Shown here piece after piece: positions 1 through 62,834 of a stretch of 64,000 nucleotides of DNA. Under the pieces are notes generated by a model. The model saw only the letters and a program-made list of their open reading frames with translations. It had not been told where the DNA came from and searched no databases. Each line of letters begins with the position of its first letter. The stretch's first letter is position 1. This DNA comes from a virus (lineage: Duplodnaviria > Caudoviricetes). The stretch lies in the IMG/VR virus record IMGVR_UViG_3300033463_000020. The stretch is one strand, 5' to 3'. A program made the position numbers and the translations under genes.

Positions 1-154
1 AATGAAATTGAATTCAAAGAATATCGTTTTTGACGAATGTGATGATGTTGAGGAAATGCGGCGGCTGGGCTACCAATTCGCACCGTTGTTACGCGTTGGA
101 GATAAGGTTATGGACTTTACACAAGCTATACAGTGGGTGAATAGGAGCGTATAA
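1..154 (+). CDS. Glutaredoxin/NrdH-like redoxin, 3' part (probably starts before the window)
   Basis: Frame from nt 2 reads MKLNSKNIVFDECDDVEEMRRLGYQFAPLLRVGDKVMDFTQAIQWVNRSV-TAA. This resembles the C-terminal half of phage glutaredoxin-like proteins and lies directly upstream of nrdD. The CxxC motif is not in the window. Confidence 0.6.
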   Translation, partial: MKLNSKNIVFDECDDVEEMRRLGYQFAPLLRVGDKVMDFTQAIQWVNRSV

Positions 155-156
155 TT

Positions 157-2175
157 ATGGACATTACATTAAAGTTAAATAAAGATTTTGAGCGCGCACT
201 GGACGCGTTACGTGAAGAATTTGGGGAAGAATTTGAGTACATTAATGGTATTCATCCCAGTCAGTTAGATTATTCCGAATTTCTACAGCAATTTACGGGA
301 CGCGATACCTTGGCAGATGCCACGATCGACCCCAACGCCAATGCTAACCATAGAGATATCCGGTCTTTTATGACGGAAAAAGGCAAGCCTTCAGATAAGC
401 TGTTCGGCCTAAGCAAAATTTTCTACGAGATTAAAAAGCAGTGGGGATTAAAAACAGCTAAAGAATGGCTCCGCCAGGAGTTTAGCCGCGGTTTCTATCT
501 GAACGACAGTGCGACAGCGTCGTTGTATCCGTATTGTTGGGCGCAAGACGTTACGCGTCTGGCTACGGAAGGCCTGTTTTTCCTGAACCACTACAACAAT
601 GAAGCGCCTCAGCATTTATTGACATTCTTCGATGATGTTATCGAGTTTATTTCATTCTTGTCTAATAGGCAGTCTGGCGCGGTAGGGTTGCCCAATGTCT
701 TAGTTTGGGCCTACTATTTTTGGAAGCATGATGTTGAAAACAACTATTACATTAAAGATCCCGAATATTATTTGCGGCAATCGTTCTAGAAGTTTATCTA
801 TAGGTTAAATCAGCCATTCCTGAGAATCGATCAAAGTGCCTTTACTAACGTTTCTATCTTTGATCGTCCGTATCTAGAATCGCTTTTTGGAGGCGTAGAA
901 TTTCCTGACGGATCCTTTGCTATTGATCATATCGAAGATCTGATTCATGTACAAGAAGTATTTATGGAAACGGTTTCCGAAATACGCAAGGTAAACATGT
1001 TTACATATCCTGTGCTAACTTTTTGCATCCTTAAAAAGCCCGGATTAACCGACGCAGATCGCGAGGCGATGATGCGCAATCGGCAGTGGGATCTATTTGT
1101 GGATGATAAGTTTGCCAGGTGGGCATCGAAGCACAATATGCAATGGTACGATTCGAACTTCTTCTTGTCGGACAATGTGGGCACCCTATCGAATTGCTGC
1201 CGACTTCTCAGCGACACTTCCAAGTTGGATGCTTTTATTAATAGTATTGGTGGCACCGCGCTTTCTGTTGGTAGTTGTCGTGTTAGCACTATCAATTTGG
1301 CGCGTATTGCTTATGAAGCCCTGGGCTATGATAAAAACGTTAATGTGGACCTTACCAAAATCGATCTGGAGAAGGCTAAACAGCGTTATTTAAAGATCCT
1401 AGAGGAGCGCACGCTACTTGACTGCAAGGCGCTGTTCAGTATGCGGCACATCTTGAAGCGGAATATCGAAAAGGGTCTATTGCCAAATTACTGTGACGGG
1501 GGCGTGGAACTAGACAAATAGTTCTGCACAATTGGCGCAATTGCGGCATATGAGGTTATGGATTTGTTTGGCTTGATTCAAACGGATGAGTTTGATAACA
1601 AGAGCTATTCAGACGGGGCTGTAGAATTTATGACCCAGATTTTGGATACCATTAACCGCGTCAAAGATTCCTTTGACTGTGATTACTCTATGAATTTGGA
1701 ATGCATTCCCGGCGAGAATTGTGCGGGCGTTATCTGTCAGGCTGACAATCTCTTGTTTAGACAGTCGCGTTATTTTATTTACAGCAATCAGTGGATACCG
1801 CTGATGGCTAAGTGTACTTTGCAAGAGAAGTGTCGGCTCGGGCATCTGTTCGATGAAAAATGTGGTGGTGGTACCATTGCACATATTAATGTCGAGAACA
1901 GATTCCCGAATGAGCAGGCGGCGTGGGACATGCTGAATTATGTTGCAGCATCTGGCGTTATTTATTCGGCATTCACTACTAAGATTAACGTATGTGAGCA
2001 CAAACACGCGAGCATAGGCACGAGTACGTGTCCAGAGTGTGGGGGTCCGATCGTTGACCAGTTTGCTCGTGTGGTAGGTTTTTATGTCCCTATTTCCAGT
2101 TATCAAAAGATTAGAAAACGGGAATTTGATTTACGGAAGTGGTATAACGTTTTGGAGTCCGAGAGGCTGTTTTAA
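157..2175 (+). CDS. nrdD: Anaerobic (class III) ribonucleoside-triphosphate reductase, 672 aa, 2 in-frame TAG
   Basis: ORFs 157, 964 and 1558 share one frame and are joined only by TAG (787, 1519). Motifs: QSGAVG, SNCCRL, C-terminal CEHKH..CPEC Zn site, RVVGFY glycyl-radical loop. The TAGs sit at usual Gln positions (F-Q-KFIY, LDK-Q-FCTIG). Confidence 0.95.
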
Positions 2176-17515: not shown

Positions 17516-20500
17516 ATGGCGGTTTATAAACCCACTTTGTGCTATCCATTTTCCAATGGTCTAGACATTCGCACGGGTGTCCAGAAAATTAGCGAGACGG
17601 GTGCGCTCGTAGATCCAGCGCAATGCTTGACGTGCCGTATTGAAACGTCCAATGTTGCAATTACAGGATATTCAGTAGCATTGTTTTCGACGGCTCACGA
17701 ACAAATTTTTCCCAAAGTTTTTGAAGATGCGACCAATAAGATACCGTATGTGAGTCCAATTTCGGAATTGCAGTATGCGTCTTTGGGTTATGACGCACAG
17801 AATCCCACGGGGGTTAACTCGGGTGTTAATGGTGCAACATTGCGTATTCCTTTTTTCCGTGCTACACGTGCAGACACTGACTATCCGAGATCATTAAACG
17901 CCATATATTATCAAGCTGATTATGTTGTGGCACATTTAATTTTAGACGAAACCGCTGCAGAGGAGGCGCCTAGTGATTACCGAGCCACACGAGACCCCAG
18001 TGTATATACTAATGTCGATGAGGCCGAGTACTGGAAACAAACGACGCGTACGGGGGGTACGTATTTAATTCATACGACTACCACCGATCCCACCGATGTC
18101 ACACATATTTCCAATGCCAGTTATGTTGCAAATGGTGGCGCTTTAATATGTGATGGCGAACCCTTAATTGTGGGTGATTTAGTAGGGGTGATTTTGGGTA
18201 CTGAACCCCAAAGTGGTGCACCTATCTAGATGACCAAGGGTGGTATATATGAGGTTGCCACAATTCCTGCGGCAGACGACGATAGTCGTATGATTTTCGC
18301 GCTAAAATTGCGTAATACGTTAGCGCTAAAAAGCCGTTTAGTGGTTTGGCAAGGTGCGTCTTTGCATAATACCATGTGGGAGGTTACTACTGATGGTTTG
18401 GGGTAGCGTGGCGCATTGGACGATGCTTTGTGGTGCGATACCTACGGTAACCCCGTAGAGTTGGACGCGCGGGGGACGCATTATCAATGGGAGATTACGC
18501 TCTACCAAGGCACTACCGCGATTGGCGAGTCGCTACCCATTTTACCCGCCGATACTGTAATGCGCACTCGTTATGGTGGCTGGGTAGATTATACAACTAT
18601 TGGCCCTCAATGGTTTGATAATATTGTAACTGGTGGACAAATTATGGGGTCGACGCCAGAACGGCTGTAGTTGGCCGATGCCAGTGAGCAATATTTACCG
18701 GCGGGTACCGATTCGGATCCCCTGGTGTTACAAGATACATTTTGTGCTATATTCCCGTTGCCCGCAGGGTCGGCAACAGATTATACATCCTGGTCGAGTA
18801 TTAGTCGCTTTCCTGTGCATGATTACGATGCACGTTATGGGCATGTATATCCTTATGCCAAAACTTTGTTAGGCCTGAGTCCGCCCAGCGCAGAATAGTG
18901 GTGTGCTTTTTATGAACACTCAACAAATCCGCAGGAAATCTTAGACACAGATATTGTGGATTATGCATATGCTACGGAACTAGCCTTAAGTTTCTGGCAC
19001 GTAACCGATGGCGCTTGGCACCAAGATTCGATATCTGCAAATGACTATAACGCTGTCGATCTTTGGAAGGGCGTGTCCGTGACCGAACGGTATCTGGTCG
19101 TGGGATCGGACGGTAGTTATAATCCCAATCCTACAGGTAGTGGCGGTCAAATTTTGTTAACTGCGCAATCCAGACGGTGGCAAAATGGCGTGTGGCAAAT
19201 TAAAACGATGGAAGCAGCTTGGGGGAATAGCACAAGTAAAAAATATTATTTAACTCGTGCAGCTAAGTATGAAACCTGGGGCGATTTCATTGGCCGCATC
19301 GTCTATGCCCCACAGCCGTCCAGTATGAACTGGACTAGCCTAGCAGCAGCCGGGGCCGCCAATTTGTGGAATTACCAAGATGTCGATATGCAATATGGTC
19401 GTGGGGATTTAGTATTTTCACCTGAGCGACCTATTCTATTGTTCCGAGAAAAATTATGGCACGTAAATAATTTTACTGGCGTGGTCCGTAGTGTGGATCT
19501 ATATAGCGCTTACTCGGCGGGGTCAGGTTTTACCCCGCAAGATAGCGACGGTGCCCGTTAGAACGCATGGCAAATTGGCGATTATGTGGCGGATCGCACG
19601 GGTACGATCTATTATGTTGCGGGCTGTACGCGCAATCACACGTAGTTTACTTTGGAGCGGGTCGGTAACGCCGCAAATTATGCCTTTATTTATGTCGTCA
19701 ATTTTGCGCGAACGTCTACGGGAATTCTTTATGATGCCGGGGGCACCGTTTATACCTGGGTTCCGGCGACGAATTCAGAGCCCGCGAGCTGGCAACAAAC
19801 ATGGGAGTTACATCGTGCTAAAATTTTAAAGAATAATACGACGTATACTTATGTCTCTCCTTGGGTTAAGGGTGTGGTGGATGCACGTATGAGCATGAAA
19901 TTGCTTAGTCCGGGTGTTGCGGTGGTCGCAAACTCGAACGTCACCACTGATATTATTCGTATTCGTGGCCTGAATGACGTGGTCTATCGTTTAGATCACG
20001 ATGCATTGGATGAGCCCATGGAAGCATATGGCGCGAGCAACCCCTTTATTCCCTATCGTTACAACATCTGTAGTTATTTCCGCACATCGGAGCCGAATCC
20101 CTTTATTGCATATGAGCGTCCGTATTTACGGCTATTCTTAGAGCAAGAATTGTTGACTAATTTATCGATGGTTGCGCCTAGTGTGCCTACTGCTGTAGAA
20201 ACCAGCCATCCTTTAGCGGTGGAGTGGTTGGAGCACATTACCACATATGTGGCAAGAAAACTCAACTTAGGTGTTGAATACCAGCAATTTAACCACACGA
20301 TGTGGGAAAGTTACTAGTGGAAATTATATTCGGGTGATGGTACGACCCTATTGCAAGACACCGGACGGTGCTACGATGGACTAATTTAGACAACATTTTA
20401 TGGTTTGGCCAACGAGCTGAGTGCAAATGTTCCCTATTGGGCTTCTGTGATTGTGGAGAACAGTGTCGGCGATGTTTTGGAATATCGCTTACGTTTTGAA

Positions 20501-24755: not shown

Positions 24756-26015
24756 ATGAGTACAACGACTCACTATGTTAATCTTAGTAGCGGCGACACC
24801 TTGGCGTTCACGATTAATGACGAGGACGCTTTGGGTTATTATGCGAATGCCGGAACGGATATTGCGTGGTTGCAAAATGCTATCTCGGATAATACCGTTC
24901 AGGCTATTTTTCGGATTTATGTTTTATATCCCGACGAAACTATTGCTTATGAGATCCCCCGCGATCGCATTAAGTCTGGCGGTAGCTATAATGAAAATTA
25001 TCAAAATGGCTAGCGGCGCACCTTGTCATTTACGTTGTACAACGAGGATGGACAGTACACCCCCAATGTTAATCAATTTTGGGTGGGTACGAAATTGCGT
25101 TTAGATATGGGGCTGTTATTGCCTTCGGGTAATAGCGTGTGGTTCCAAAAAGGCATTTTTGTGATTACCACCGCAGCCCCTTCTAAGGTCCCCGGGGCGC
25201 ACGAGGTGAATATCTCTGCGGCAGATAAATATTGTTTGTTTGAGCAGGGGCGAGGAGTTTTAGGAAGTACATATGTTGTTCCGGTGAACACCGATATCTA
25301 TGGTCTTATTTCGTCGATCTTATTTACCGACGGCGGGAACGGATATCTACTAGATTCAACACCGTTTTTGTTTAACCGTGCGCTGGAAACGAAAAAGACC
25401 TAGGCTGAAATTACCAAAAGCGCCGGCGATAATTTGGGCAGTATCTTGTCAGATATTGCCCTGCAAATTAATGCTGAGGTTTTTTATAATTCTACAGGCC
25501 AATTGGTTTTTGCTCCGATCCCCGAAGTCACTGCTGATATTAATAAGCCCATTTTATACCATTATGAGACGCCCAAGGGTGACCTGAGTTAGCTGGACTT
25601 TAACTTGGATTACGCTAATATTGTAAACCGAGTGGTGGTCATTGGCACGTCGTCGTCTGGAGGAACCTTTAGCTATGTGGTCGCTAATGACGATGCAACG
25701 TCGCCATTATGTTGGCAACGGATAGGTTTCCGTACCGGCGAGGTGATTACGGATACTAATATTTATTCGATGTAGCTAGCCAAAGAACGCGCCGAGTATG
25801 AGTTGAGATAGCGCTTAATTTTAACCAGTTCCGTAAATCTCACGATTATGTGCAACCCGTTTTTGTCGGTGAATAATTTAATTACGATTTCTGATGAGTT
25901 TTATGGTTTAAATCGTGAAAAATTCTTAATTCAGTCTGTGGGATGTGCGTTGGATTTCTCGAACCAGATGCAAATTAGCGTAACAAATATTCGGAACCTA
26001 CCATTTTTAACTTGA
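24756..26015 (+). CDS. Baseplate hub / tail-associated protein, 419 aa, 5 in-frame TAG
   Basis: One frame through five TAGs to TGA. NGQRRTLSFTL, NRVVVIG and AKERAEYEL segments resemble phage hub proteins, and the position fits. Confidence 0.7.
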
Positions 26016-41292: not shown

Positions 41293-42492
41293 ATGACCAG
41301 TATATATTTGGACGGGGCTGCTAATACCCCACTCTCAAGGGCTGCATTCCGTGCTATGCGGCCCTTTTTACGGCACGGGCTAGGGAACACTATGTCTGTG
41401 CACCATTTTGGCGTCGCCATGTTTACAGCGTTGGAGTAGGCGCGCGATACTATTGCCACGCTAACGCATGCGCGCCCCGAGGAGATTTTCTTTACTTCTG
41501 GAGCCACCGAAGGCAACAATTAGGCGATTATGTCTGCTGCCCAGCAATGGCGGGCCACGCACGAAACGGGAGGCCATATTATTTGTTCGGCGTTGGAGCA
41601 CGATTCGGTATTAAAGTGTTGTGTTAGAGTCGCCGAGATAATGCATTTTGATGTTTCTTTTGTACTGCCCAAGCAGGAAAATGGCTATCGTATAGACATG
41701 GCGGATATCACCCCTTTGCTTCGACCGGATACTTTTCTGATCTGTGTTATGGAAGTAAACAACGAGCTGGGGACACGGAATCATGTGGCTCAAATTGCTT
41801 AGGAAGCCACTCTGCGCGGTATTGCCACACTAGTAGATTGTACCCAAGGGATTAGTACCGGGGGATCAAGTGTGGCTATCGCCAGTCGTATACCCTGTGC
41901 CACTTATTTAACTTGTTCTGCGCATAAATTTTATGGCCCCACAGGCGTAGGGCTGTTAATTGCTCGGCGTGCGTTGGAACCGCTGATTGTCGGTGGAGGG
42001 CAAGAATAGGGGGCACGCGGCGGCACCCACAATTTGGCGGCTATCGTAGGCATGGCCGCAGCGCTAAAAGAATTGCACCGGACAGATTACTCGGGTCATT
42101 ACCAGGCGTTAACTAATCACCTGTGTGTGCGTTTAGCAACCAGCCTACCAGATGCCAGATTTAATGTGTGGCCCGACGCGCCCGGCATTGTAAGCCTTAA
42201 CTGTGGCGCTATGATCACCAGCGGACATTTAGCCAGCATGCTGGATAGTTATGGTATCGCAGTGAGTGCGGGTTCGGCATGTGATGCTGATCACGATGAA
42301 ACCGCGGGGCAATTTCACGCCTCTCACGTGTTAACTGCTCTTGGTTTGAGCGAAACGGAAATTCGTAACACAATACGCGTATCCTTTATTCGTACGACAA
42401 CCATGAGGGATATTGATCGATTAGTGTTTGCGTTACGAGATTTATATGATTTATATTATTCTTCTGCAAAGGAGCCAAATGTTACAGTATGA
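41293..42492 (+). CDS. iscS: Cysteine desulfurase (IscS/NifS family), 4 in-frame TAG
   Basis: YLDGAANTP, FTSGATEGNN, EHDSV, NNELGT, SAHKFYGP (PLP Lys), GGGQE, SAGSAC (catalytic Cys). Confidence 0.9.
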
Positions 42493-47849: not shown

Positions 47850-47924
47850 TGGGGTGTAGTATAAAGGTCAGTACAACGGTCTCTAAAACCGAGAATCTCA
47901 GTTCGAGTCTGAGCGCCCCCGCCA
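47850..47924 (+). tRNA. Amber suppressor tRNA (anticodon CUA)
   Basis: Anticodon arm CGGT-CTCTAAA-ACCG (CTA at 47883-47885), GTTCGAGTC T-loop, G73, CCA. Confidence 0.92.
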
Positions 47925-47930
47925 TTACAC

Positions 47931-48000
47931 GGGGGCGTAGCCGGATGGCTAGGCGGTGGTTATTCCACTAAGGCAAGGTCCCTCCTTGCCGCCCCCTCAA
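47931..48000 (+). ncRNA. Degenerate tRNA-like element
   Basis: GGGGGCG/CGCCCCC acceptor, GCC/GGC D-stem, 5-nt anticodon loop, non-canonical T-loop. Confidence 0.5.
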
Positions 48001-48005
48001 CACTT

Positions 48006-48080
48006 AGGGATGTAGCCAAGTGGTAAGGCAATGGACTTTGACTCCATCACTCGTAGGTCCGAATCCTGCCATCCCTGCCA
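48006..48080 (+). tRNA. tRNA-Gln(UUG)
   Basis: ATGGA-CTTTGAC-TCCAT, AGGGATG/CATCCCT, G73, CCA. Confidence 0.92.
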
Positions 48081-49106: not shown

Positions 49107-49197
49107 GCAGGGATACCCAAGCGGCCGAAGGGGGCTGCCTACTAAGCAGCTAGGCTTGGCAACGAGTGCCTGGGTTCGAATCCCAGTCCCTGCGCCA
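49107..49197 (+). tRNA. tRNA-Ser(ACU)
   Basis: GCTGC-CTACTAA-GCAGC, long variable arm, G73, CCA. Confidence 0.85.
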
Positions 49198-49737: not shown

Positions 49738-49834
49738 ATCCACCTAGCTCAACACGGTAGAGCCTGTTGCTTTCGGAGCGGTATATGCAACATAAACGCG
49801 CTCGATGCGGGTTCGAATCCCGCGGTGGGTACCA
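49738..49834 (+). ncRNA. tRNA-like RNA with enlarged anticodon and variable regions
   Basis: Intact acceptor, D-arm and T-arm plus CCA; TGTTGC/GCAACA stem closes a 16-nt loop. Confidence 0.65.
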
Positions 49835-51296: not shown

Positions 51297-51620
51297 ATGA
51301 AAATTATTGAAACAGCTAATGGACAGCAGCAGGTGGTGGGAGTTTCGGAGTGCGAACTCCGTGAAACCAGTGATGGCCTCATTTGGGCGCCCTGCCTTTC
51401 GGCCCGGGACTATGCGGAGATTTGTGAGATTGCACCGCATGATACACAGGCTCCGGCACGAGCCGCAATGTCCACAGAAGAATACGTCGCCAGTTTAGAC
51501 GACCGTGAAATACAGGCGCAGGCAACTTATGCCGCATATCTCAGTGAAAAGATTGCGGATGGTGAGGCCCTCCAGGCCTTTCTGAGTACGCAAGGAGGAG
51601 GCATGTATGTCAGAAGCTAA
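51297..51620 (+). CDS. Hypothetical protein
   Basis: 107 aa with a purine-rich RBS, immediately before the long tail fibre. Confidence 0.65.
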   Translation: MKIIETANGQQQVVGVSECELRETSDGLIWAPCLSARDYAEICEIAPHDTQAPARAAMSTEEYVASLDDREIQAQATYAAYLSEKIADGEALQAFLSTQGGGMYVRS

Positions 51621-54600
51621 TAAGTAGTATTAGGTTAATTCGAACGATCTTATCACCGTTGCCGACGCCATTCGCTTGCGGACGGGAGAGACGCGCGATT
51701 TGATCTTCCCCGACGAATTCGTCGTGGGCATTAATAGTATAGCCGGCACATGGCGGCCAATCCATGTAAATGGTACCGAAATTTTATCGACAGATCCGGC
51801 TAGCGGTTTTTTGAATCTCAAGATCGCTTCCGGATCTGTTAATATATTGGGCATTACCGCCACCTCTGCAACTGGAGGACAGAATGCCGAATTTGGGATT
51901 CGTGTCAATCCTACTTATTTCTCCTCCGACGCTTAGAACGGGCTCAGCCTGGCAAATTCATGGATTTCGACGCTCGTCACGAATCCTATGCAGGCCGCGA
52001 ATGACCTGATCGTCGGTGGCACGTCGGGGGCTCCCACTCGTTTGGCGGGTGGCTCCGTCGGCCAGGTACTGGGGATTGACTCCAACGGCAACATAGGATG
52101 GCTTAGTGAAGCTCATACGGGCACCGTTACTTCGGTAACGCTAACCTAGGGTGCCGGTATCACGGTGTCGGACTCTGGGGTGGCGATTACCTCGTCTGGC
52201 ACACGCGAGATTAGCTTAAATATCGCTAGTACATCCGCGTTGGGCGGCATAAGAGTTGGCGAGGGGTTGATGGCGACCGCTGCCGGTGTGCTAAGCATTG
52301 ATTCTACGACAGCCACAGAAGGTGACGTATTCATTCGGGACACCGACGGTTTTGCGTGGACTCATCAGTATACTGCATACAATACATCGTCGATTCCCTG
52401 GGGTAAGGTCAATACCACATCGACCTCGACACTCTTCACCGCGACGGTGCCGGGTGTTTCAGCATATCGCGATGGAGTCTCTTTCTGGCTTAAGAACGGA
52501 GTCGTAACTTCGGCCTCTGGGTTTACAATCAATATTAATGGTTTGGGTGCCAAAAAGGTTTATTCCAACATGGCCCCTACGACGCGTGATACAACCATTT
52601 TTAATATTAACTACACGATGTTATTCGTGTACGACGCTGCGCTTGATGATGGAGCTGGCGCTTTTGTTTGCTACCGAGGTTATGATGCCAACACTAACAC
52701 CATTGGTTATCAGATTCGTACGGGCGGCTCAGCTTTGGTAGCGCAAGCTAAGTTTTACCGCTATCGTTTGCTATTCACATCAGCTGATGGAACGCAATGG
52801 GTGCCGGCGAATACTAGCACTTCAACGAATGCCACTGCTGTACGTGCTGTTAACCAGTCGCCCATAGATCCTTTTGGGGCAATTGTCTGGTATGGCACGA
52901 CGACGGCGGTCGAAGCCAACGCCGTTCCCAGTACCTCGTATTTATGGCAGCAAATGTATGGTAGCTCGACGTTGATCGGGTATTCTTTCAACAGAACAGG
53001 TGCGGCAGCGACGATGACAGCGCACTTGCCAATTTATATTAAATGCGCGCCGTAGTCTGACGGATCGGCGATCATTGATGCCGATACACCATATGTGCAG
53101 ACGTTGCCCGCCACTGACGATGGTAAGATCTATATCATGCTAGGCCGGGCAGTCGACGCGACACATTTTGAAATTCTATTGAACCACCCGGTCTACACGC
53201 ACGTGAATGGGCATGTTCAATTGTGGACACCCTATGCAGCGATCGCTGGCAGCGCCGGTGCAGCAACCAGTGCCATCTATGATGGCGGCTTAAATCCATA
53301 GCAAAAAATCTCAGAATGGTATGGGCATAGCATATCAGTTAGCGGTCACACTTTGACCCTGGAGGATGCGAATGGCGATGAGTTAAACGCTATTACATTA
53401 CCAGATGACAATACAACCTATACCTTAGGTACGGGGCCACAGACTGTCACCTTGACTCCCAGTAGTGGTTCGGTGCAGAGTATTACCGTACCCTACGCCA
53501 CCAGTGCATTAAATGACGATGGTGGAAATTAGATCACAACTCATTACGGCCATATATTAATAACCAATGGTAATACCGTCGGTTTAGAGGATGGCAACGG
53601 TGATGAAATTACGGGTAGTTTTATCACGGTACCATACGCCACCAGTGCCGGAAGCGCCAGCAGTGCAACCAGCGCGATATATGATGGTGGTCTGAACCCC
53701 ACTCAAAAAATCTCAGAGTGGTACGGACACTCGTTATCATTGAGTAATGGCGTTCTCGCGCTAGAGGACGCAAACGGGGACAGTTTAAGTACTGTGACGT
53801 TACCCGAAGGCGTGACGTATACACTTGGCACGTCGGGCAACAACGTAACCCTTACTCCAAGTACGGGATCGGTGCAGAGTATCACCGTGCCGTACGCTAC
53901 TAAAGCCTTGGGCGACGATGGTGGAAATTAGATCAGCACTTATTATGGGCACAAGTTAATAATTTCAGGGAATACCCTGGGGCTCGAAGATGGTAACGGT
54001 GATGAGATCACCGGTAGTTTTGTCACAGTGCCATATGCCACGGCGGCTGGATCTGTCGCTTGGGCTAATGTGTCCGGACACGCCGCCGGCGTGAAGGACG
54101 ATCTGGGAATTGCAGCCTCTGGCACTACATTCTTGCGCAAAGATGGAACATGGGCTACACCCACTGATACGAATACTACATACAGTTTATCGGGGGCCCT
54201 GGGGTCACATAAATTTACAACCACATTAACGGCGACCAATCCCTCGGGAACCAGTACGTCGGTCATTGAGTTCGTCGCGGGTAGTAATGTCACTTTAACG
54301 GATGACACCACCAATAAGAAGATCACAATTGCCGCGACAGACACTACTTATACGCTGGGAACGGGCGTCAATACGGTTACACTTACTCCCAGCTCGGGGA
54401 GTGCGCAAAGTATTACTGTACCGTATGCTACGGCAGCGCGGAATGACGACGGGGGCAATTAGATTTCTGCCACGTACGGCCACTCTCTCGTGGTCAGCGG
54501 GACTACCGTTGGTTTAGAAGATGGCAACGGAGATGAAATTACTGGCAGTTTCGTTACTGTACCCTATGCATCTTCCGCTGGTTCAGTGGCCTGGGATAAT

Positions 54601-57600
54601 GTATCGGGACACCTCGCTGGAGTTAAGGCAGATCTGGGCATTGAATCTAGCGGGTCTACTTTCTTACGTAAAGATGGTACCTGGGCGACGCCGACCGATA
54701 CTAATACTACCTATGCGATTTCTGGTGCGCTGGCGAGCCACAAGTTCACCACGACTCTAACTGCCACGAACCCATCGGGTACCAGTACCGCTGCTATTGA
54801 ATTTGTAGCGGGCAGTAATGTGACCCTGACAGACGATACGACCAATAAGAAAATCACTATTGCGTCCGCGAATACCACTTATACGTTGGGTGTGGGAACC
54901 AACACAGTCACACTCACGCCAAGTTCTGGCAGTGTACAGACGATTACAGTACCTTATGCCACCAATGCTCGGAACGATGATGGGGGCAATTAGATTAGTA
55001 CCACCTATGCTCACTCTTTAATAGTTAGTGGTAATACGGTGGGGCTGGAAGATGGCAATGGCGACGAAATTACTGGCAGCTTTGTGACGGTTCCTTATGC
55101 CTCTTCTGCTGGTTCTGTCGCGTGGGCCAATGTTGATGGGCACCTCGCTGGTGTGAAGGCAGATTTAGGTATCGAGTCTACAGGATCAACATTTTTACGC
55201 AAAGATGGTACCTGGGCCACGCCAGCTAATACTACATATACGCTTTCGCATCCTGCAGATACGTATAACCTGGTCTTAAGTGCTGGGGGCACCGCCCAAG
55301 ACACTATTACGTTGGGCGCAAATGCTTGGAATAGCACTGCCATCCCCACCGTTTATATTAAGAGCGCTGCGGTAAGTGGCAGTACGTTGACCTTGACCAA
55401 GTCGGACAACACGACTGTTACATTTTCTGACACGGACCTAAATACGTGGCGTCCGATTAAGTATGGATCAACGACGCTTAATGATACGGCAACAACATTA
55501 GAGTTTGTGGCTGGCAGCAATGTGGGGTTATCTTTCAGTAGCGGCAAGCTAACGATCAGCAGCAGCTATACCAATACGACGTATACGTTGGGGACCAGTG
55601 GTAATACAGTTACGCTGACACCGAGCTCCGGGAGCGTGCAGAGCATCACTGTGCCCTATGCAACTAAGGCTCTTGGCGACGATGGCGGGCATCAAATCAG
55701 TACTCATTATGGCCATCTTTTAGTTATCAGCGGCAACACTATTGGATTAGAGGACGGTAACGGCGATGAAATCACAGGTAGTTTCATTACTGTTCCTTAT
55801 GCAACTGCTGCTAACACCGCGACCACTGCAGATAGCGCAAATTCTGTTGCGTGGGCTAACGTGTCTGGCCATGCCGCTGGAGTCAAAGCAGACATTGGTA
55901 TCGCGACCACTGGCACTACCTTCTTACGCAAGGACGGTACCTGGGCAACCCCAACAGACACTAATACGACATACGCTATTTCGGGCGCTCTTTCGAGCCA
56001 TAAATTTACCACAACTTTAACAGCAACCAACCCTTCGGGCACAAGTACTACCAGTCTGGAGTTGGTCGCCGGTACGAACATTACACTAACCGACGACACC
56101 ACCAACCGGAAGATCACGATCGCATCCGCTAATACCACATATACCTTAGGAACGAACGGAAACTCTGTGACTTTAACGCCCAGTTCTGGATCCGTACAGA
56201 GTATTACAGTTCCCTATGCCACCAACGCAAAAAATGACGACGGAGGCAACTAGATTTCTACAACTTACGGGCACGCACTGATAGTTAGTGGAAACACTGT
56301 GGGGCTCGAAGACGGAAATGGCGATGAGATCACAGGCAGTTTTGTAACTGTTCCCTATGCTACTGCCGCGGGATCGGTTGACTGGGCAAACGTTAATGGT
56401 CATGCCGCCGGGGTAAAAGCCGATTTGGGCATTGCATCTTCAGGCGCGACTTTCTTGCGCAAGGATGGACAATGGGCGACGCCCGCAAATACGACTTATA
56501 CTCTAACGCATCCGACCAATACTTACAATCTTGTCCTAAATGCTGGCGGGACCGCGCAAGACACGATTACGCTGGGGGCGAATGCGTGGAACAGCACCGC
56601 GATTCCTACAGTCTATATCAAGAGTGCATCTGTAAGTGGGAGCACCTTAACTTTAACCAAATCCGACGATACGACAGTCACCTTTTCAGACACCGATCTG
56701 AATACCTGGCGGCCAATCAAATACGGCTCCACCACGCTCAATGACAAGACTACGACGCTGGAGTTTGTAGCCGGCAGTAATGTTGGGCTATCTTTTAGCT
56801 CAGGCAAACTAACTATTTCTAGTAGCTATACTAACACCACCTATACGTTGGGCACCAACGGGAATACCGTGACGCTGACACCGAGCTCTGGCTCTGTACA
56901 AAGTATTACTGTTCCATACGCCACCAAGGCTTTAGGGGATGACGCCGGCAATCAGATTACGACAACTTATGGTCACGCTTTGGTTGTTAGTGGGAATACC
57001 GTAGGCTTGGAAGATGGCAACGGAGATAGTATTACAGGTAGTTTTATCACAGTCCCCTATGCAACGGCCGCGGGTAGTGCAACGACAGCAACAACGGCTG
57101 ACACTGCTAATTCTGTCGCATGGGCAAACGTGTCGGGGCATGCGGCCGGAGTCAAAGCCGACATTGGCATTGCCACCAGCGGAAGCACTTTTTTACGGAA
57201 AGACGGACAGTGGGCGACACCAACCGATACTAATACTACGTATAGTCTTTCTGGTGCCCTCTCAAGCCATAAGTTCACCACGACCCTTACGGCCACGAAC
57301 CCGTCCGGGACGAGTACTTCAGCAATTGAATTTGTGGCTGGGGGCAACATCACGTTAACCGATGACACGACTAATAAGAAAATCACCATTGCCGCCACCG
57401 ATACCACATACACGTTTTCGGCCCCCTTATCAAAGAACAGCTCTAATGTTGTTAGTTTGTCCCTGGGTACCGGACTAACTACTTCTAGCAACGCGCTAGT
57501 GGTTGATTCTGGATGGTTGGAGGATGAGATTTCCGATGCTTTGACGGGTTATGTGACGGGCAGTGGCACTAGCGGGTATTTAGCCAAGTGGAATGGCAGC

Positions 57601-57924
57601 GGGTCGCTTACCAACGGCCCATAGCTGGGAAGTTCCACCACAACTTATTTACGCAACGATGGTACTTGGGCAACTCCCACGGATACGAATAATGCGGTAA
57701 CGCAAACCGCTACCACCACCAATGCAACGTATGAGGTTTTGTTTAGTAATACTGCGGACAATACCACACGCACCGAGGGGGCGCGGAAAAATAGTAACCT
57801 GTTATTCAATCCTTCGACGGGTACAATGAGCACTGTGATCTATACCATGATGGTGGGCACCACAGCCAAAGCACGTATGAACTATGATAATACTGTCGAG
57901 GCAATTAAATTTACATTTGTGTGA
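51607..57924 (+). CDS. Long repetitive tail fibre protein, ~2105 aa
   Basis: All fragments from 51676 to 57739 are in one frame joined by TAG; GGAGG RBS; T/S/G-rich with repeated FLRKDGTWATP and SITVPYAT..DDGGN(Q)I modules. Confidence 0.88.
53250..57420 (+). repeat. Tandem coding repeats within the tail fibre
   Basis: Seven copies of TYTLG..VTLTPSSGSVQSITVPYAT..DDGGNQI..YGH..GLEDGNGDEITGSF.TVPYA, with alternating spacer modules. Copies are near-identical in protein but diverged at synonymous sites. Confidence 0.9.
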
Positions 57925-60311: not shown

Positions 60312-62834
60312 ATGGCATAGTTAAAAGATTTAATGGTTTATGGCGATGCCAAATTTTTAGCAAATGCCATGTTAGACCATGATCCCACCCTTAACCTTGA
60401 GGCTGCAACGAAACATTATGTGGACTAGGCGGTTGCTGGTACCATCACCGGATCGGGTACTAACGGGTATTTGACCAAATGGAGCGGCGGTAGCTCTATC
60501 ACGAATGGGCCATAGTTGGGCTCCAGTACGACAACCTATTTGCGGAATGACGGCAGTTGGGCTACGCCGCCCAATACCACCTATACATTGGGCACGGGGA
60601 CAAAAACGGTCACCTTAACGCCGAGCCCCGGATCAGAGCAGAGCATTACCGTACCTTACGCCACAAGTGCTCGGAATGATGACGGCAACAATTAGATTAG
60701 TACCACATATGGACACAGTTTATTGCTTAGTGGCGGCAAGCTTAGCTTAGAGGACGGTAACGGTGATGAAATTTCGGGTAGTGGGGTCACCATTCCGGGT
60801 TGGCGACCAGTTAGTCCACGTGATTTTACGAATGGCACGCTAATCAAAACCAGCATTAATTATGCGGTATCCGACGGCGCGGCGTTTTATTTGCACATTT
60901 TAAGTGATGGATACGGCACTGCTGACATCGATACTGTGGCAACAGGATATATTTATAGTAGTAGTTACCTATACGCCACTGGTATCACCAATTATGGGCG
61001 TTAGATTCTCCCCGAATTAAAAGCCATGAATATCGACGGTAATTTATGTTTCTGGTTTGCGCGCATTGGCTACTGGCAGTCTTTTGCATGCGAGTGTTAT
61101 TCGGCGAGTTCAGGAAATTATAATTCGAATTTAGTCACTGAGGTGAGTAATTCGGCTGACCCCTCATCCTCTGCTACCAAAGTGGTGGTGCTAGGGACGG
61201 GGGGGTCATCTCCCAAGGGCATTAATAAAAGCGTATTTGCTCATTCTGCAGGGTCGCAAACTACTAATTATTTGACAAAATGGTCTGCTGGTAATACCAT
61301 TACTGATGCTGCGGCCTATGACACTGCTGCGAGTAATAGTACAATAGCGCAACGCACTGCTAACGGCTATTTATATGCTACTTACTTCAATAATTCTAAT
61401 TCAGCAGTAAACATCGCGAGTTACACCGTACGAGGGGTTAATTTTACTTCTTCTGATGGCTTCGTCCGCAATACACCTAAAGCCAACTTTACTAGTTGGC
61501 TAGGACTCGGAGAACTTGCTTATCTCAGCGGTACGAGCGGTAACGAAAATAAATATTTAATATTTGATGGCTCTAGCGAATATAGCTGGGGCGACGTGAA
61601 GAGTTTAACGGGTTGGTCAGCTCTTTCTACAACAACCGCAGTTAATGATTTTATGACTGGCAACACTCTTAAATTTGCCGAAGTTAAATCTTATACTACT
61701 GCCGCGCTTGATGGCAACGACGGAGTACTACTTTCTGTTGGATATCCAGGGACTACCAATGGTTATGGTATGCAAATACTTATGGATGATAATAACGCAA
61801 AAACCACCATATATGCGCGCGGTCGTAAGGCAACCAACTATGACACATGGCGGAAAATCGCTCATAGCGGCAATCTAACATTAAGTATTAGTAGTAATAA
61901 TTTATCATTAAAAGTAGATGGCACAACAGTGTCTACTGTGACACTACCGAACACCTGTTTAGCCGAAGGCACAAAGATTTTAATGGCTAACCATACAGAA
62001 AAGAATGTCGAAGATATAGCAGCAGGAGATTCTATTCTTTCATATGATCCTAATACAAATTAGCTGATTGAGGCTATAGTAGTAGGCAATTATGAAACAG
62101 GAGTTTCTGATGATTTTGTTAATTATTATTTTGACGATGGTTCTTTTGTGACTATTTTTGGCAAGCATTGTTTGTATAGCGTTACTGAAGGAACAGCACG
62201 TGGTGTAGATTTTTGGGAGCCAGGCTGGGAAAGCATTAACGATAAAGGAGAAACAATTACCTACATTGGCTCTGAAGATATTCATAATGCTGGTCGTAAA
62301 CGTCACTTCGACCTTCACAGTTCCAACAAATTATATTTCGCGAACGGTATCCTGAATGCCCAGTCGCTGACTCTCGACTATCCGTTGTATAAAGACGGCG
62401 AACTTCCTAAAGAATTCATCGCCGCTCTTAAGGCTGACTTTGATTCTTCGGCGAATCTCCACACGCATCAGTTCGATAAGAAGACTGGCTCTATTCTCGC
62501 CCCTATCCTCAAAGAGCTCAAAGTTCAGAAGAAGGTTATGGACGACAACAAGAAGCTTCTTGCCGATTCTGATTACCTGGTCGCGAAATTCACCGAGGGG
62601 CTTATCAGCGCCGCTGAGTGGCTCAAGGCGAAAGCTGAACGCGCGGGCTGGAGAAGTGCTGTCAACAAAGCAGAACCTCTGTACGCCGCGGCTCAGGAGC
62701 GTTATGAGGCGTTTAAAGCCAAGTATGCACCGACCAACACAAAGCGCGAAAGATTCAACGCAGCCGTCGCGCGAGACAACGCTTGCCTAGGCGCGCTGAA
62801 GGCTTATTACAAATCAAAGAACGAATTAAAATAA
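60312..62834 (+). CDS. Tail fibre with Hint (Hedgehog/intein) domain and C-terminal tail-assembly-chaperone-like domain, 840 aa
   Basis: MA[TAG]LKDL start, ATKHYVD, and repeats shared with the long fibre. CLAEGTKILMA..VEDI..GD (from 61956) and LYFANGIL Hint blocks. C-terminal LADSDY..K..E..R..WR..VN. Confidence 0.8.

Follow-up and report, generated by a model that had tools for sequence, protein, structure and literature searches.

We analysed a window of 64,000 nucleotides, bases 72030-136029 of a complete virus record of 149,604 bp (direct terminal repeats, 48% GC) that represents a cattle-gut phage of about 150 kb. ARAGORN identified nine tRNA genes in the complete genome, all inside the window, and one of them is the only tRNA in the genome with a CUA anticodon. 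The tRNA features at the locus are:

47850..47924, + strand: amber suppressor tRNA(CUA) with a Trp-type framework (ARAGORN, Rfam, Trp versus Gln covariance models, and a parse into fields)
47883..47885, + strand: its anticodon CTA, positions 34-36, which differs from the Trp anticodon CCA at position 35 only
48006..48080, + strand: ordinary tRNA-Gln(UUG), 81 nt downstream of the suppressor and 60% identical to it, which served as an internal contrast

The suppressor gene is 75 nt long with the anticodon CTA (ARAGORN), and scores 51.7 bits against the Rfam tRNA model RF00005 (gathering score 29, E 3e-10). It has the layout of a cloverleaf with a 7-nt anticodon loop and a T loop of the UUCGAxU type, and it parses into the fields TGGGGTG TA GTAT AAAGGTCA GTAC A ACGGT CTCTAAA ACCGA GAAT CTCAG TTCGAGT CTGAG CGCCCCC G CCA. 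In the acceptor stem, U1/C72 is mismatched and G2-C71, G3-C70, G4-C69, and G5-C68 are paired; G73 and an encoded CCA follow, and U35 lies in the anticodon. The preliminary description of this locus, made from the sequence, had listed the U1/C72 mismatch, G2-C71, G3-C70, U35, G73, and the CCA end, and all are present in our parse. Two further features were absent from that first reading: the top pair of the anticodon stem, A27/A43, is open, so that the stem is 4 bp long, and the variable loop consists of 4 nt. We note as a side observation that C34 occurs in natural tRNA-Gln(CUG) and that A36 is unavoidable in any amber suppressor. ARAGORN gives the label tRNA-Pyl to any CUA anticodon; we found no Pyl-type structure and rejected that assignment. 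A search with Rfam at a permissive threshold found no theta/HDV-like ribozyme beside the suppressor.

The anticodon arm had been described as one base from that of bacterial tRNA-Trp, and this holds: the arm of E. coli trpT (MG1655; L275:5958-6033) is CCGGT CTCCAAA ACCGG, and the core CGGTCTC[T/C]AAAACCG differs between the two at position 35 alone. The arm was also said to be unlike that of the neighbouring tRNA-Gln, which reads ATGGA CTTTGAC TCCAT. E. coli trpT carries GTTCGAGTCT and CGCCCCTGCCA and ends in GTTCGAGTCTCTCCGCCCCTGCCA. Of the two further motifs noted as Trp-like, GTTCGAGTCT and CGCCCC-N-GCCA, both occur in the suppressor as claimed, and GTTCGAGTCT also occurs in trpT. ARAGORN found no tRNA-Trp(CCA) in the window, as reported earlier, nor in the full genome with its nine tRNAs.

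We compared the suppressor with a family of 14 related short-variable-loop CUA tRNAs from other phages. Each of the 20 other cloverleaf pairs is kept in 13-14 of the 14 members, with many compensatory changes. Pair 1:72 is formed in only 5 of 14: U1 is present in 13 of the 14 members, and opposite it position 72 may be any of C, U, A, and G. Since U1 is kept and 1:72 is mostly open across the family, an open first pair with U1 looks selected. This pattern of conservation indicates that the suppressor is a genuine tRNA, maintained by selection, and one of a conserved family.

TAG as a sense codon in the phage genome

Across the whole genome, 73 of the 109 non-overlapping long ORFs contain in-frame TAG, 272 codons in all, and the 109 ORFs end in TAA (63) or TGA (46). 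The late region is fragmented under the standard code; reading through TAG gives ORFs of 2310, 1554, 2405, and 2105 residues. The 73 TAG-containing genes are mostly virion, tail, and nuclease genes, and the TerL, portal, tape measure, and tail genes all hold in-frame TAG. The phage genome contains neither a release factor gene nor a class Ib/Ic synthetase domain (GluRS/GlnRS-type or TrpRS/TyrRS-type), and host enzymes must therefore serve.

We inferred the meaning of TAG in four independent ways: (i) from NrdD; (ii) from a tail protein; (iii) from a desulfurase-like protein together with TerL; and (iv) from internal repeats. The features that carry this evidence are:

133..2175, + strand: NrdD-like anaerobic ribonucleotide reductase with two informative TAGs (787 and 1519), which correspond to Gln in 118 of 120 and 120 of 120 homologues
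24756..26015, + strand: tail protein with five in-frame TAGs, four of which correspond to Gln in 113, 117, 50, and 72 of 120 full-length homologues
41293..42492, + strand: class-V aminotransferase / cysteine-desulfurase-like protein with four TAGs, of which sites 170 and 239 are Gln in 98%- and 71%-identical homologues
41521..41523, + strand: exceptional TAG, residue 77 in the desulfurase-like protein; the aligned column has Trp in 82 of 120 homologues, among them the closest (TEGNN-W-AIKSA), and Gln in 4
51607..57924, + strand: 2105-residue repeat protein with the repeat ITVPYAT..DDGGN-x-I, in which x is TAG in five copies, CAA at 55693, and CAG at 56953 in paralogous copies

The 120 NrdD homologues used for the alignment are of 73-83% identity. 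In the tail protein, the fifth TAG falls in a variable column, with Gln in two among the closest homologues. TerL residue 247, encoded by TAG, is Gln in the three closest homologues, and the distant homologues (30-40% identity) are uninformative at five of the six TAG sites. The repeat carries TAG in six copies overall, the sixth at 60693. A codon-pair comparison with L008, the only close fragment, and with phages that share NrdD offered too few sites, and the tape measure protein, used as a query for related loci, found no relative. In sum, TAG has Gln as its counterpart at about ten conserved sites, in up to 120 of 120 homologues, and Trp at one other site.

On these alignments TAG is a sense codon in the phage, and it aligns with Gln. 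The preliminary description had taken TAG as Gln, and the NrdD, TerL, desulfurase-like, and tail alignments agree with it, as do the swaps of TAG with CAA and CAG in the repeats; the codon at 41521 is the one Trp exception. Lys is the other usual fate of U35 suppressors, and G73, as against A73, favours Gln over it (PMC9976931). We rejected TAG=Lys on the basis of G73 and the Gln alignments.

Isotype class and ancestry of the suppressor

Our reference set of 752 tRNAs came from 285 sequence records, which covered phage contigs, bacterial loci, E. coli, and a Clostridia bin. As surrogates for the tRNAscan-SE isotype models we built covariance models (CMs) on 21 Trp(CCA) genes and 28 Gln(UUG/CUG) genes, mostly from phages. 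The suppressor scored 71.3 bits with the Trp CM and 52.7 bits with the Gln CM, a gap of 18.6, and the comparison is fair because each model sees about one anticodon mismatch. True Trp tRNAs scored 73-75 bits with the Trp CM and 50-54 with the Gln CM, and the window's own tRNA-Gln(UUG), which lay outside the training set, scored 80.2 bits with the Gln CM and 48.7 with the Trp CM. Trp-versus-Gln isotype scoring had been proposed earlier as a check on the Trp derivation, and with these home-made models it came out for Trp. The Lak-phage relatives of the suppressor score nearly equally with the two models (Trp versus Gln, 62.7 versus 61.4 and 60.2 versus 60.3 bits).

Sequence comparison gave a similar picture. 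When 576 non-suppressor tRNAs were ranked by global identity to the suppressor, the top four were all Trp(CCA), and 11 of the top 20 were Trp. Identity reached 72% for a Bacillota chromosomal Trp(CCA), 71% for E. coli trpT, and 62-63% for the E. coli Gln tRNAs; with 72% as the best value among the 576, none of them is a near-identical Trp(CCA) parent. BLAST of the suppressor against 50,697 phage records returned Lak-phage tRNA(CUA) and three annotated tRNA-Trp genes, with no Gln, and the best cellular matches in 301 Bacillota genomes were two tRNA-Trp(CCA). The same search against E. coli genomes returned nothing even at an E-value limit of 10, despite the 71% global identity to trpT.

We also scored the suppressor with a naive-Bayes positional profile, which has a leave-one-out accuracy of 73% over 20 isotypes and assigns Trp correctly in 19 of 22 cases. 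Trp came first of the 20 isotypes whether the anticodon arm was included (Trp -44.3, then Cys -66.7) or left out (Trp -39.4, then Gln -52.0), and the body-only Trp score of the suppressor was reached by just 1 of 551 non-Trp tRNAs. Features of the Gln isotype (the arm GGA-CUUUGAC-UCC and the D arm GCCA-AGUGGUA-AGGC) differ from those of the suppressor. By every whole-molecule measure that we ran, the suppressor is scored as Trp-type, not Gln-type. A clustering of the body with tRNA-Gln and a failure to insert Gln were the two outcomes that the preliminary description set against its proposal; neither emerged from these comparisons or from the codon alignments.

That proposal was a derivation from tRNA-Trp in the manner of Su7. 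The Trp-type framework and the arm one base from that of tRNA-Trp stand; descent is less firmly placed, as the same arm sits on unrelated bodies and the body-only signal is modest. The Trp-likeness of the suppressor is concentrated in the anticodon arm, which agrees with Trp arms at 13-14 of 14 positions, a level matched by Trp alone among the 576 tRNAs. At least 115 viral contigs contain the identical 15-nt arm CGGTCTCTAAAACCG, with a tRNA(CUA) at 109 of the loci listed. With the arm removed, the bodies of the listed loci fall into the classes Trp (23), Arg, Lys, Ser, Tyr, Gln, Thr, Leu, and others. Ser(UGA/CGA) genes share much of the arm by nature, but Leu- and Lys/Thr-like bodies do not; the identical arm on the latter therefore implies that it was reached repeatedly and that convergence is possible. 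In bacterial genomes the arm pattern is mostly a chance occurrence, with a tRNA at 18 of 120 loci.

It is accordingly conceivable, though we think it distinctly less probable than descent, that a Gln-inserting suppressor gained its Trp-like arm by convergence or arm exchange on a tRNA-Gln or another ancestor, under selection for efficient UAG reading. Beside the arm on Ser, Leu, Lys, Thr, Arg, and Tyr as well as Trp bodies, several observations fit such an origin. The 5' strand of the acceptor, UGGGGUG, is the same as in phage tRNA-Gln genes (e.g., L080 and L096); U1 is the base typical of Gln tRNAs, of which 68% have it, compared with 18% of Trp tRNAs; and the Lak relatives, as noted, are equidistant between the two models. 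Raw body identity and a same-contig comparison did not separate Trp from Gln, and on contigs that carry a suppressor together with Trp and Gln genes, body identity was tied at 5:5. Other observations weigh on the side of tRNA-Trp. A Gln arm would need five changes (34, 36, 38, and a swap of 31:39), and a Trp arm would need one. Beyond the arm core, the D stem (G-U-R-U / R-Y-A-C), the 4-nt variable loop, and the open A27/A43 lean toward Trp, the unpaired A27/A43 being present in 3 of 22 Trp tRNAs versus 1 of 554 others. The body-only likelihood favours Trp over Gln by 12.6 nats, a margin that is matched in 4 of 22 true Trp tRNAs and in 1 of 34 true Gln tRNAs (about 6:1 for Trp), with 7 of 34 true Gln tRNAs misclassified as Trp on body-only scores. 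Weighing these features, we consider descent of the suppressor from a tRNA-Trp gene probable.

Identity elements and the route to glutamine

Bacterial Gln determinants comprise G73, U1-A72, G2-C71, G3-C70, G10, U34, U35, G36, A37, and U38, and the Trp determinants comprise G73, A1-U72, G2-C71 to G5-C68, A9, C34, C35, and A36 (PMC9976931). From the E. coli GlnRS set, the suppressor has G73, an open 1:72 with U1, G2-C71, G3-C70, G10, U35, and A37; U34, G36, and U38 are absent, and it has C34, A36, and A38 in their place. It retains 8 of 10 TrpRS determinants, lacking A1-U72 (here U1/C72) and C35, on a set drawn from E. coli and B. subtilis that may not be that of the host. GlnRS has to open the 1:72 pair of its substrate. 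An acceptor-side Gln set (weak 1:72, G2-C71, G3-C70, G73, and G10) is complete in 50% of Trp and 44% of Gln tRNAs, versus 0 of 520 other tRNAs. The suppressor has all five elements, which bears out the earlier claim that its acceptor end fits GlnRS, with the qualification that tRNA-Trp and tRNA-Gln share this set.

The precedent invoked in the preliminary description is accurate as far as the sources treat it: in the passages of PMC2965240 (citing Yaniv et al. 1974) and PMC9976931 on this tRNA, E. coli tRNA-Trp with a CUA anticodon loses recognition by TrpRS and is charged by GlnRS. The sharing of the acceptor-side set by tRNA-Trp and tRNA-Gln accounts structurally for this charging by GlnRS in E. 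coli. By analogy, the change of C35 to U in the phage tRNA would remove the main TrpRS determinant and create the main GlnRS determinant, on an acceptor end that may already have what GlnRS needs (an open 1:72 with U1, G2-C71, G3-C70, G73, and G10). The host glutaminyl-tRNA synthetase would then be expected to charge the suppressor with Gln, as in E. coli su+7; the cognate CUA anticodon would read UAG and deliver glutamine, and this would let the 73 TAG-containing genes be completed. The arm of the suppressor, with A36-A37-A38 in its loop and a GGU/ACC stem, is the one that gives efficient UAG reading in suppressor work. We lean, with moderate confidence, toward a single functional amber suppressor with a Trp-type framework and C35U that inserts Gln via host GlnRS, the charging step being inferred from the identity elements.

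A sister class, of suppressors that share the CUA anticodon and the main anticodon arm, also bears on glutamine loading. Its members have a long variable arm, and U1 and G73 are frequent in them, as are Trp-like D arms in many. In 25 of 47, the variable-arm hairpin has a loop YUYUGAN, that of the Gln anticodon, compared to 0 of 122 ordinary class-II tRNAs. This difference suggests that getting Gln onto suppressor frameworks is under selection. The suppressor at 47850-47924, with its 4-nt variable loop and no second arm, is the plain form.

Several other readings accept or dispute parts of this scheme. If the suppressor kept its Trp identity, TAG would mean Trp (code 32), in keeping with its Trp isotype score, its 8 of 10 bacterial TrpRS determinants, and the TAG at 41521 in a Trp-conserved column. 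We regard this as very improbable, as C35, a major TrpRS determinant, is lost, the roughly ten conserved TAG sites align with Gln (up to 120 of 120) and none of those with Trp, and the internal repeats swap TAG with CAA or CAG, not with TGG. A milder form is a dual Gln/Trp identity, by which UAG would be ambiguous in the phage, mostly Gln and sometimes Trp. E. coli su+7 itself reportedly shows dual Gln/Trp behaviour. We consider this improbable for the phage; if true, the TAG at 41521 would give a functional fraction of the desulfurase-like enzyme, and relatives with TAG=Trp would be the alternative end point of this tRNA framework. Still harder to credit is a tRNA that has decayed or acts as a decoy, with TAG read through by something else. 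The U1/C72 and A27/A43 mismatches, and a cloverleaf that single-sequence folding does not recover, would suit decay. Against this stand the Rfam score of 51.7 bits, the family of 14 that keeps U1 and keeps all other pairs by compensatory changes, and the fact that this complete genome, with its 272 in-frame TAGs, has no other CUA tRNA; moreover, suppression is reported to be better with open 27:43 pairs (PMC13092985).

A further alternative, which we rate as unlikely but less so than the three above, keeps Gln as the inserted residue and replaces the charger: in a host without GlnRS, a non-discriminating GluRS would glutamylate the suppressor and GatCAB, reading U1 and the first pair, would amidate it. 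The phage tRNA-Gln is closest to Bacillota tRNA-Gln (89%) and less close to that of Bacteroidota, a weak lean from BLAST of the tRNA array. The suppressor's closest relative (84-86% identity) lies on a 60-kb, 34% GC contig of a TAG-recoded phage (G001:C41) binned in a sheep-rumen Clostridia MAG. In that bin (G001) and in a Ruminococcus bin (G003), the GlnRS model gave GluRS-level matches of 41-50 bits versus a cut-off of 426, so that two of the three Bacillota bins that carry CUA suppressors of similar kind are without GlnRS above the cut-off, in bins that are incomplete. U1, kept in 13 of 14 family members, would also suit amidation, and the Gln-anticodon-like hairpin of the sister class (25 of 47 versus 0 of 122 controls) suggests that anticodon reading by Gln-route enzymes is limiting. 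However, G001:C41 is itself a phage contig, and bin G001 may not be the host; bins G002 (Clostridia) and G004 (Bacteroides) do have GlnRS above the cut-off. GatCAB reportedly wants a U1-A72 pair, and the suppressor has C72, not A72. Nor does the suppressor carry the set on which GluRS depends, U34, U35, C36, and A37 with an augmented D helix (PMC9976931).

Comparison with known systems

Phage suppressor tRNAs and TAG=Gln are already well known (Borges et al. 10.1101/2021.08.26.457843; PMC9523058), and co-option of host GlnRS has already been proposed by Borges et al. (10.1101/2021.08.26.457843). The phage described here resembles the code-15 phages Lak, crAss-like, and phAss-1 (10.1101/2021.08.26.457843; PMC9523058; PMC10607447) in having a single suppressor in its tRNA array, in a concentration of TAG in late and structural genes with replication genes TAG-free, and in encoding no cognate synthetase, for which reliance on host GlnRS has been proposed in those phages. 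Lak tRNA(CUA) is also the best database match of the suppressor (79% over 61 nt). Unlike these three groups, the suppressor here comes from another phage lineage, with a genome of 150 kb and 48% GC, and whereas the phAss-1 suppressors are of Gln isotype by tRNAscan-SE, this one is Trp-type by 18.6 bits.

In that respect it is closer to the suppressors surveyed by Kienbeck et al. 2024 (PMC10879173), who found the Trp isotype in 19.4% of 180 theta-ribozyme-associated phage suppressors and considered a possible TAG=Trp (code 32). Both are phage suppressors for which an isotype model says Trp; here, in contrast, the codon alignments give Gln, and Rfam finds no HDV-like ribozyme adjoining the tRNA. 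Our literature search, which was not exhaustive, found no paper tying a Trp-isotype phage suppressor to Gln decoding via su+7. The conflict between a Trp isotype and Gln alignments would be explained by su+7, since there a tRNA-Trp(CUA) takes Gln. The isotype score of a suppressor, from which the inserted residue of phage suppressors is usually guessed, need not equal the inserted amino acid. If this is general, the TAG=Trp calls based on suppressors of Trp isotype (19% in one survey) have to be looked at again, and pipelines for annotation should take the code from alignments and not from the tRNA. The family-wide open U1:72 and the shared arm would be testable determinants for making a host synthetase serve a stop codon, and would offer a natural basis on which to develop amber suppressors that are orthogonal or efficient.

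A further close counterpart is E. coli su+7 (supU; Yaniv, Folk, Berg & Soll 1974, through PMC2965240 and PMC9976931). There are clear differences: su+7 is a laboratory mutant of a chromosomal gene, whereas the suppressor here is natural and phage-encoded, is 71% and not 99% identical to trpT, has an open U1/C72 for A1-U72, A27/A43 for C27-G43, and a 4-nt variable loop, and its charging by GlnRS is a prediction. Their likeness lies in a Trp-type framework, a single difference from the Trp anticodon (U for C at position 35), and UAG read as Gln, as far as those sources describe su+7. The arm core CGGUCUCUAAAACCG is identical in the two tRNAs, and G73, G2-C71, G3-C70, G4-C69, G5-C68, and A9 are common to both. 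A su+7-like design of the phage suppressor is supported by its covariance-model scores and by its nearest ordinary tRNAs.

Anticodon arms of the suppressor tRNAs

We examined the anticodon arms of tRNA(CUA) genes in viral contigs and found that one 15-nt arm, CGGTCTCTAAAACCG, is common to genes whose bodies are otherwise Trp-, Ser-, Leu-, Lys/Thr-, Arg- or Tyr-like (loci L009-L123 and L129-L248). In some of the phages that carry this arm, TAG may be read as an amino acid other than Gln. Those tRNA(CUA) genes whose variable arm is long have a main anticodon arm identical to that of the window's suppressor. Among the matches listed from the viral contigs L009-L123, 25 of 47 such genes hold a small hairpin inside the long variable arm whose loop, YUYUGAN, resembles the Gln anticodon loop (for example, L025, L037, L071, and L118); this loop occurs in 0 of 122 normal class-II tRNAs.

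The pair at the top of the anticodon stem, 27:43, is A/A in the window's suppressor. Across our collection of 752 tRNAs, this pair is open in 31% of CUA suppressors, compared with 8% of the remaining tRNAs (Fisher p 1.6e-10), and in 36% of phage tRNA-Trp(CCA). Stronger reading of stop codons has been linked to 4-bp anticodon stems, as arise from an open 27:43 (PMC13092985).

Related arrays and a TAG at a Trp column

A 133-kb viral contig, L317, which is a relative by its desulfurase-like protein (46% identical), carries an array in the order Pro(TGG), Sup(CTA), Gln(TTG) at 18284-20320. Its suppressor shares U1/C72, G73 and CCA with the window's, but differs in its arm and in its loop, CTCTAAC. 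In the arrays of the more distant relatives L334, L336, and L362, Trp(CCA) adjoins Gln(TTG). A further contig, G001:C41 (loci L272-L274; 59.9 kb, 34% GC), lies within a sheep-rumen Clostridia metagenome-assembled genome and is TAG-recoded: reading TAG as sense raises its ORF content from 8,949 to 14,105 aa. It carries Trp(CCA) and Gln(TTG) together with the closest relative of the window's suppressor, and this contig in the Clostridia bin is probably of phage origin.

Of the dozen or so informative TAG sites, only the codon at 41521-41523 falls at a Trp-conserved column, where 82 of 120 cysteine-desulfurase-like homologues have Trp (motif TE[SG]NN-W-AIK). This TAG could mean that replacing W by Q is tolerated there, that decoding is ambiguous, or that part of the gene came from a relative in which TAG is Trp.

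Other elements of the array and a possible RNA polymerase

The following features belong to the array or its surroundings, except for the last, which lies outside the window:

47931-47996, + strand: cloverleaf-shaped element of 66 nt, found by folding, directly 3' of the suppressor tRNA
49107-49197, + strand: class-II tRNA-Ser, anticodon ACT (A34)
49738-49834, + strand: tRNA-Arg(TCG), 97 nt, Rfam 40 bits
49882-50000, + strand: drum RNA (RF02958) hit within the tRNA array, 46 bits (gathering score 43)
G000:C1:42273-45242, - strand: protein of 989 aa, weakly matching PF05183, a eukaryote-type RdRP family (E 9e-9)

The predicted fold of the 66-nt element comprises a closing stem of 6 bp and three hairpins with loops of 4, 5, and 5 nt. 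With a free energy of -38.4 kcal/mol (z -3.5), the element folds better than all 200 shuffles. It received no tRNA call from either ARAGORN or Rfam, and a role as a tRNA-like processing or decoy element is possible.

We note that the tRNA-Ser(ACT) is unusual for its A34 anticodon, AGY codons normally being read by GCU in bacteria. The related locus L362 has a similar tRNA-Ser(ACT). The tRNA-Arg(TCG) has a long insertion 3' of the anticodon stem, and its Rfam score is the lowest in the array. As for the 989-aa protein, PF05183 is the fold family of the YonO and crAss-like phage RNA polymerases.
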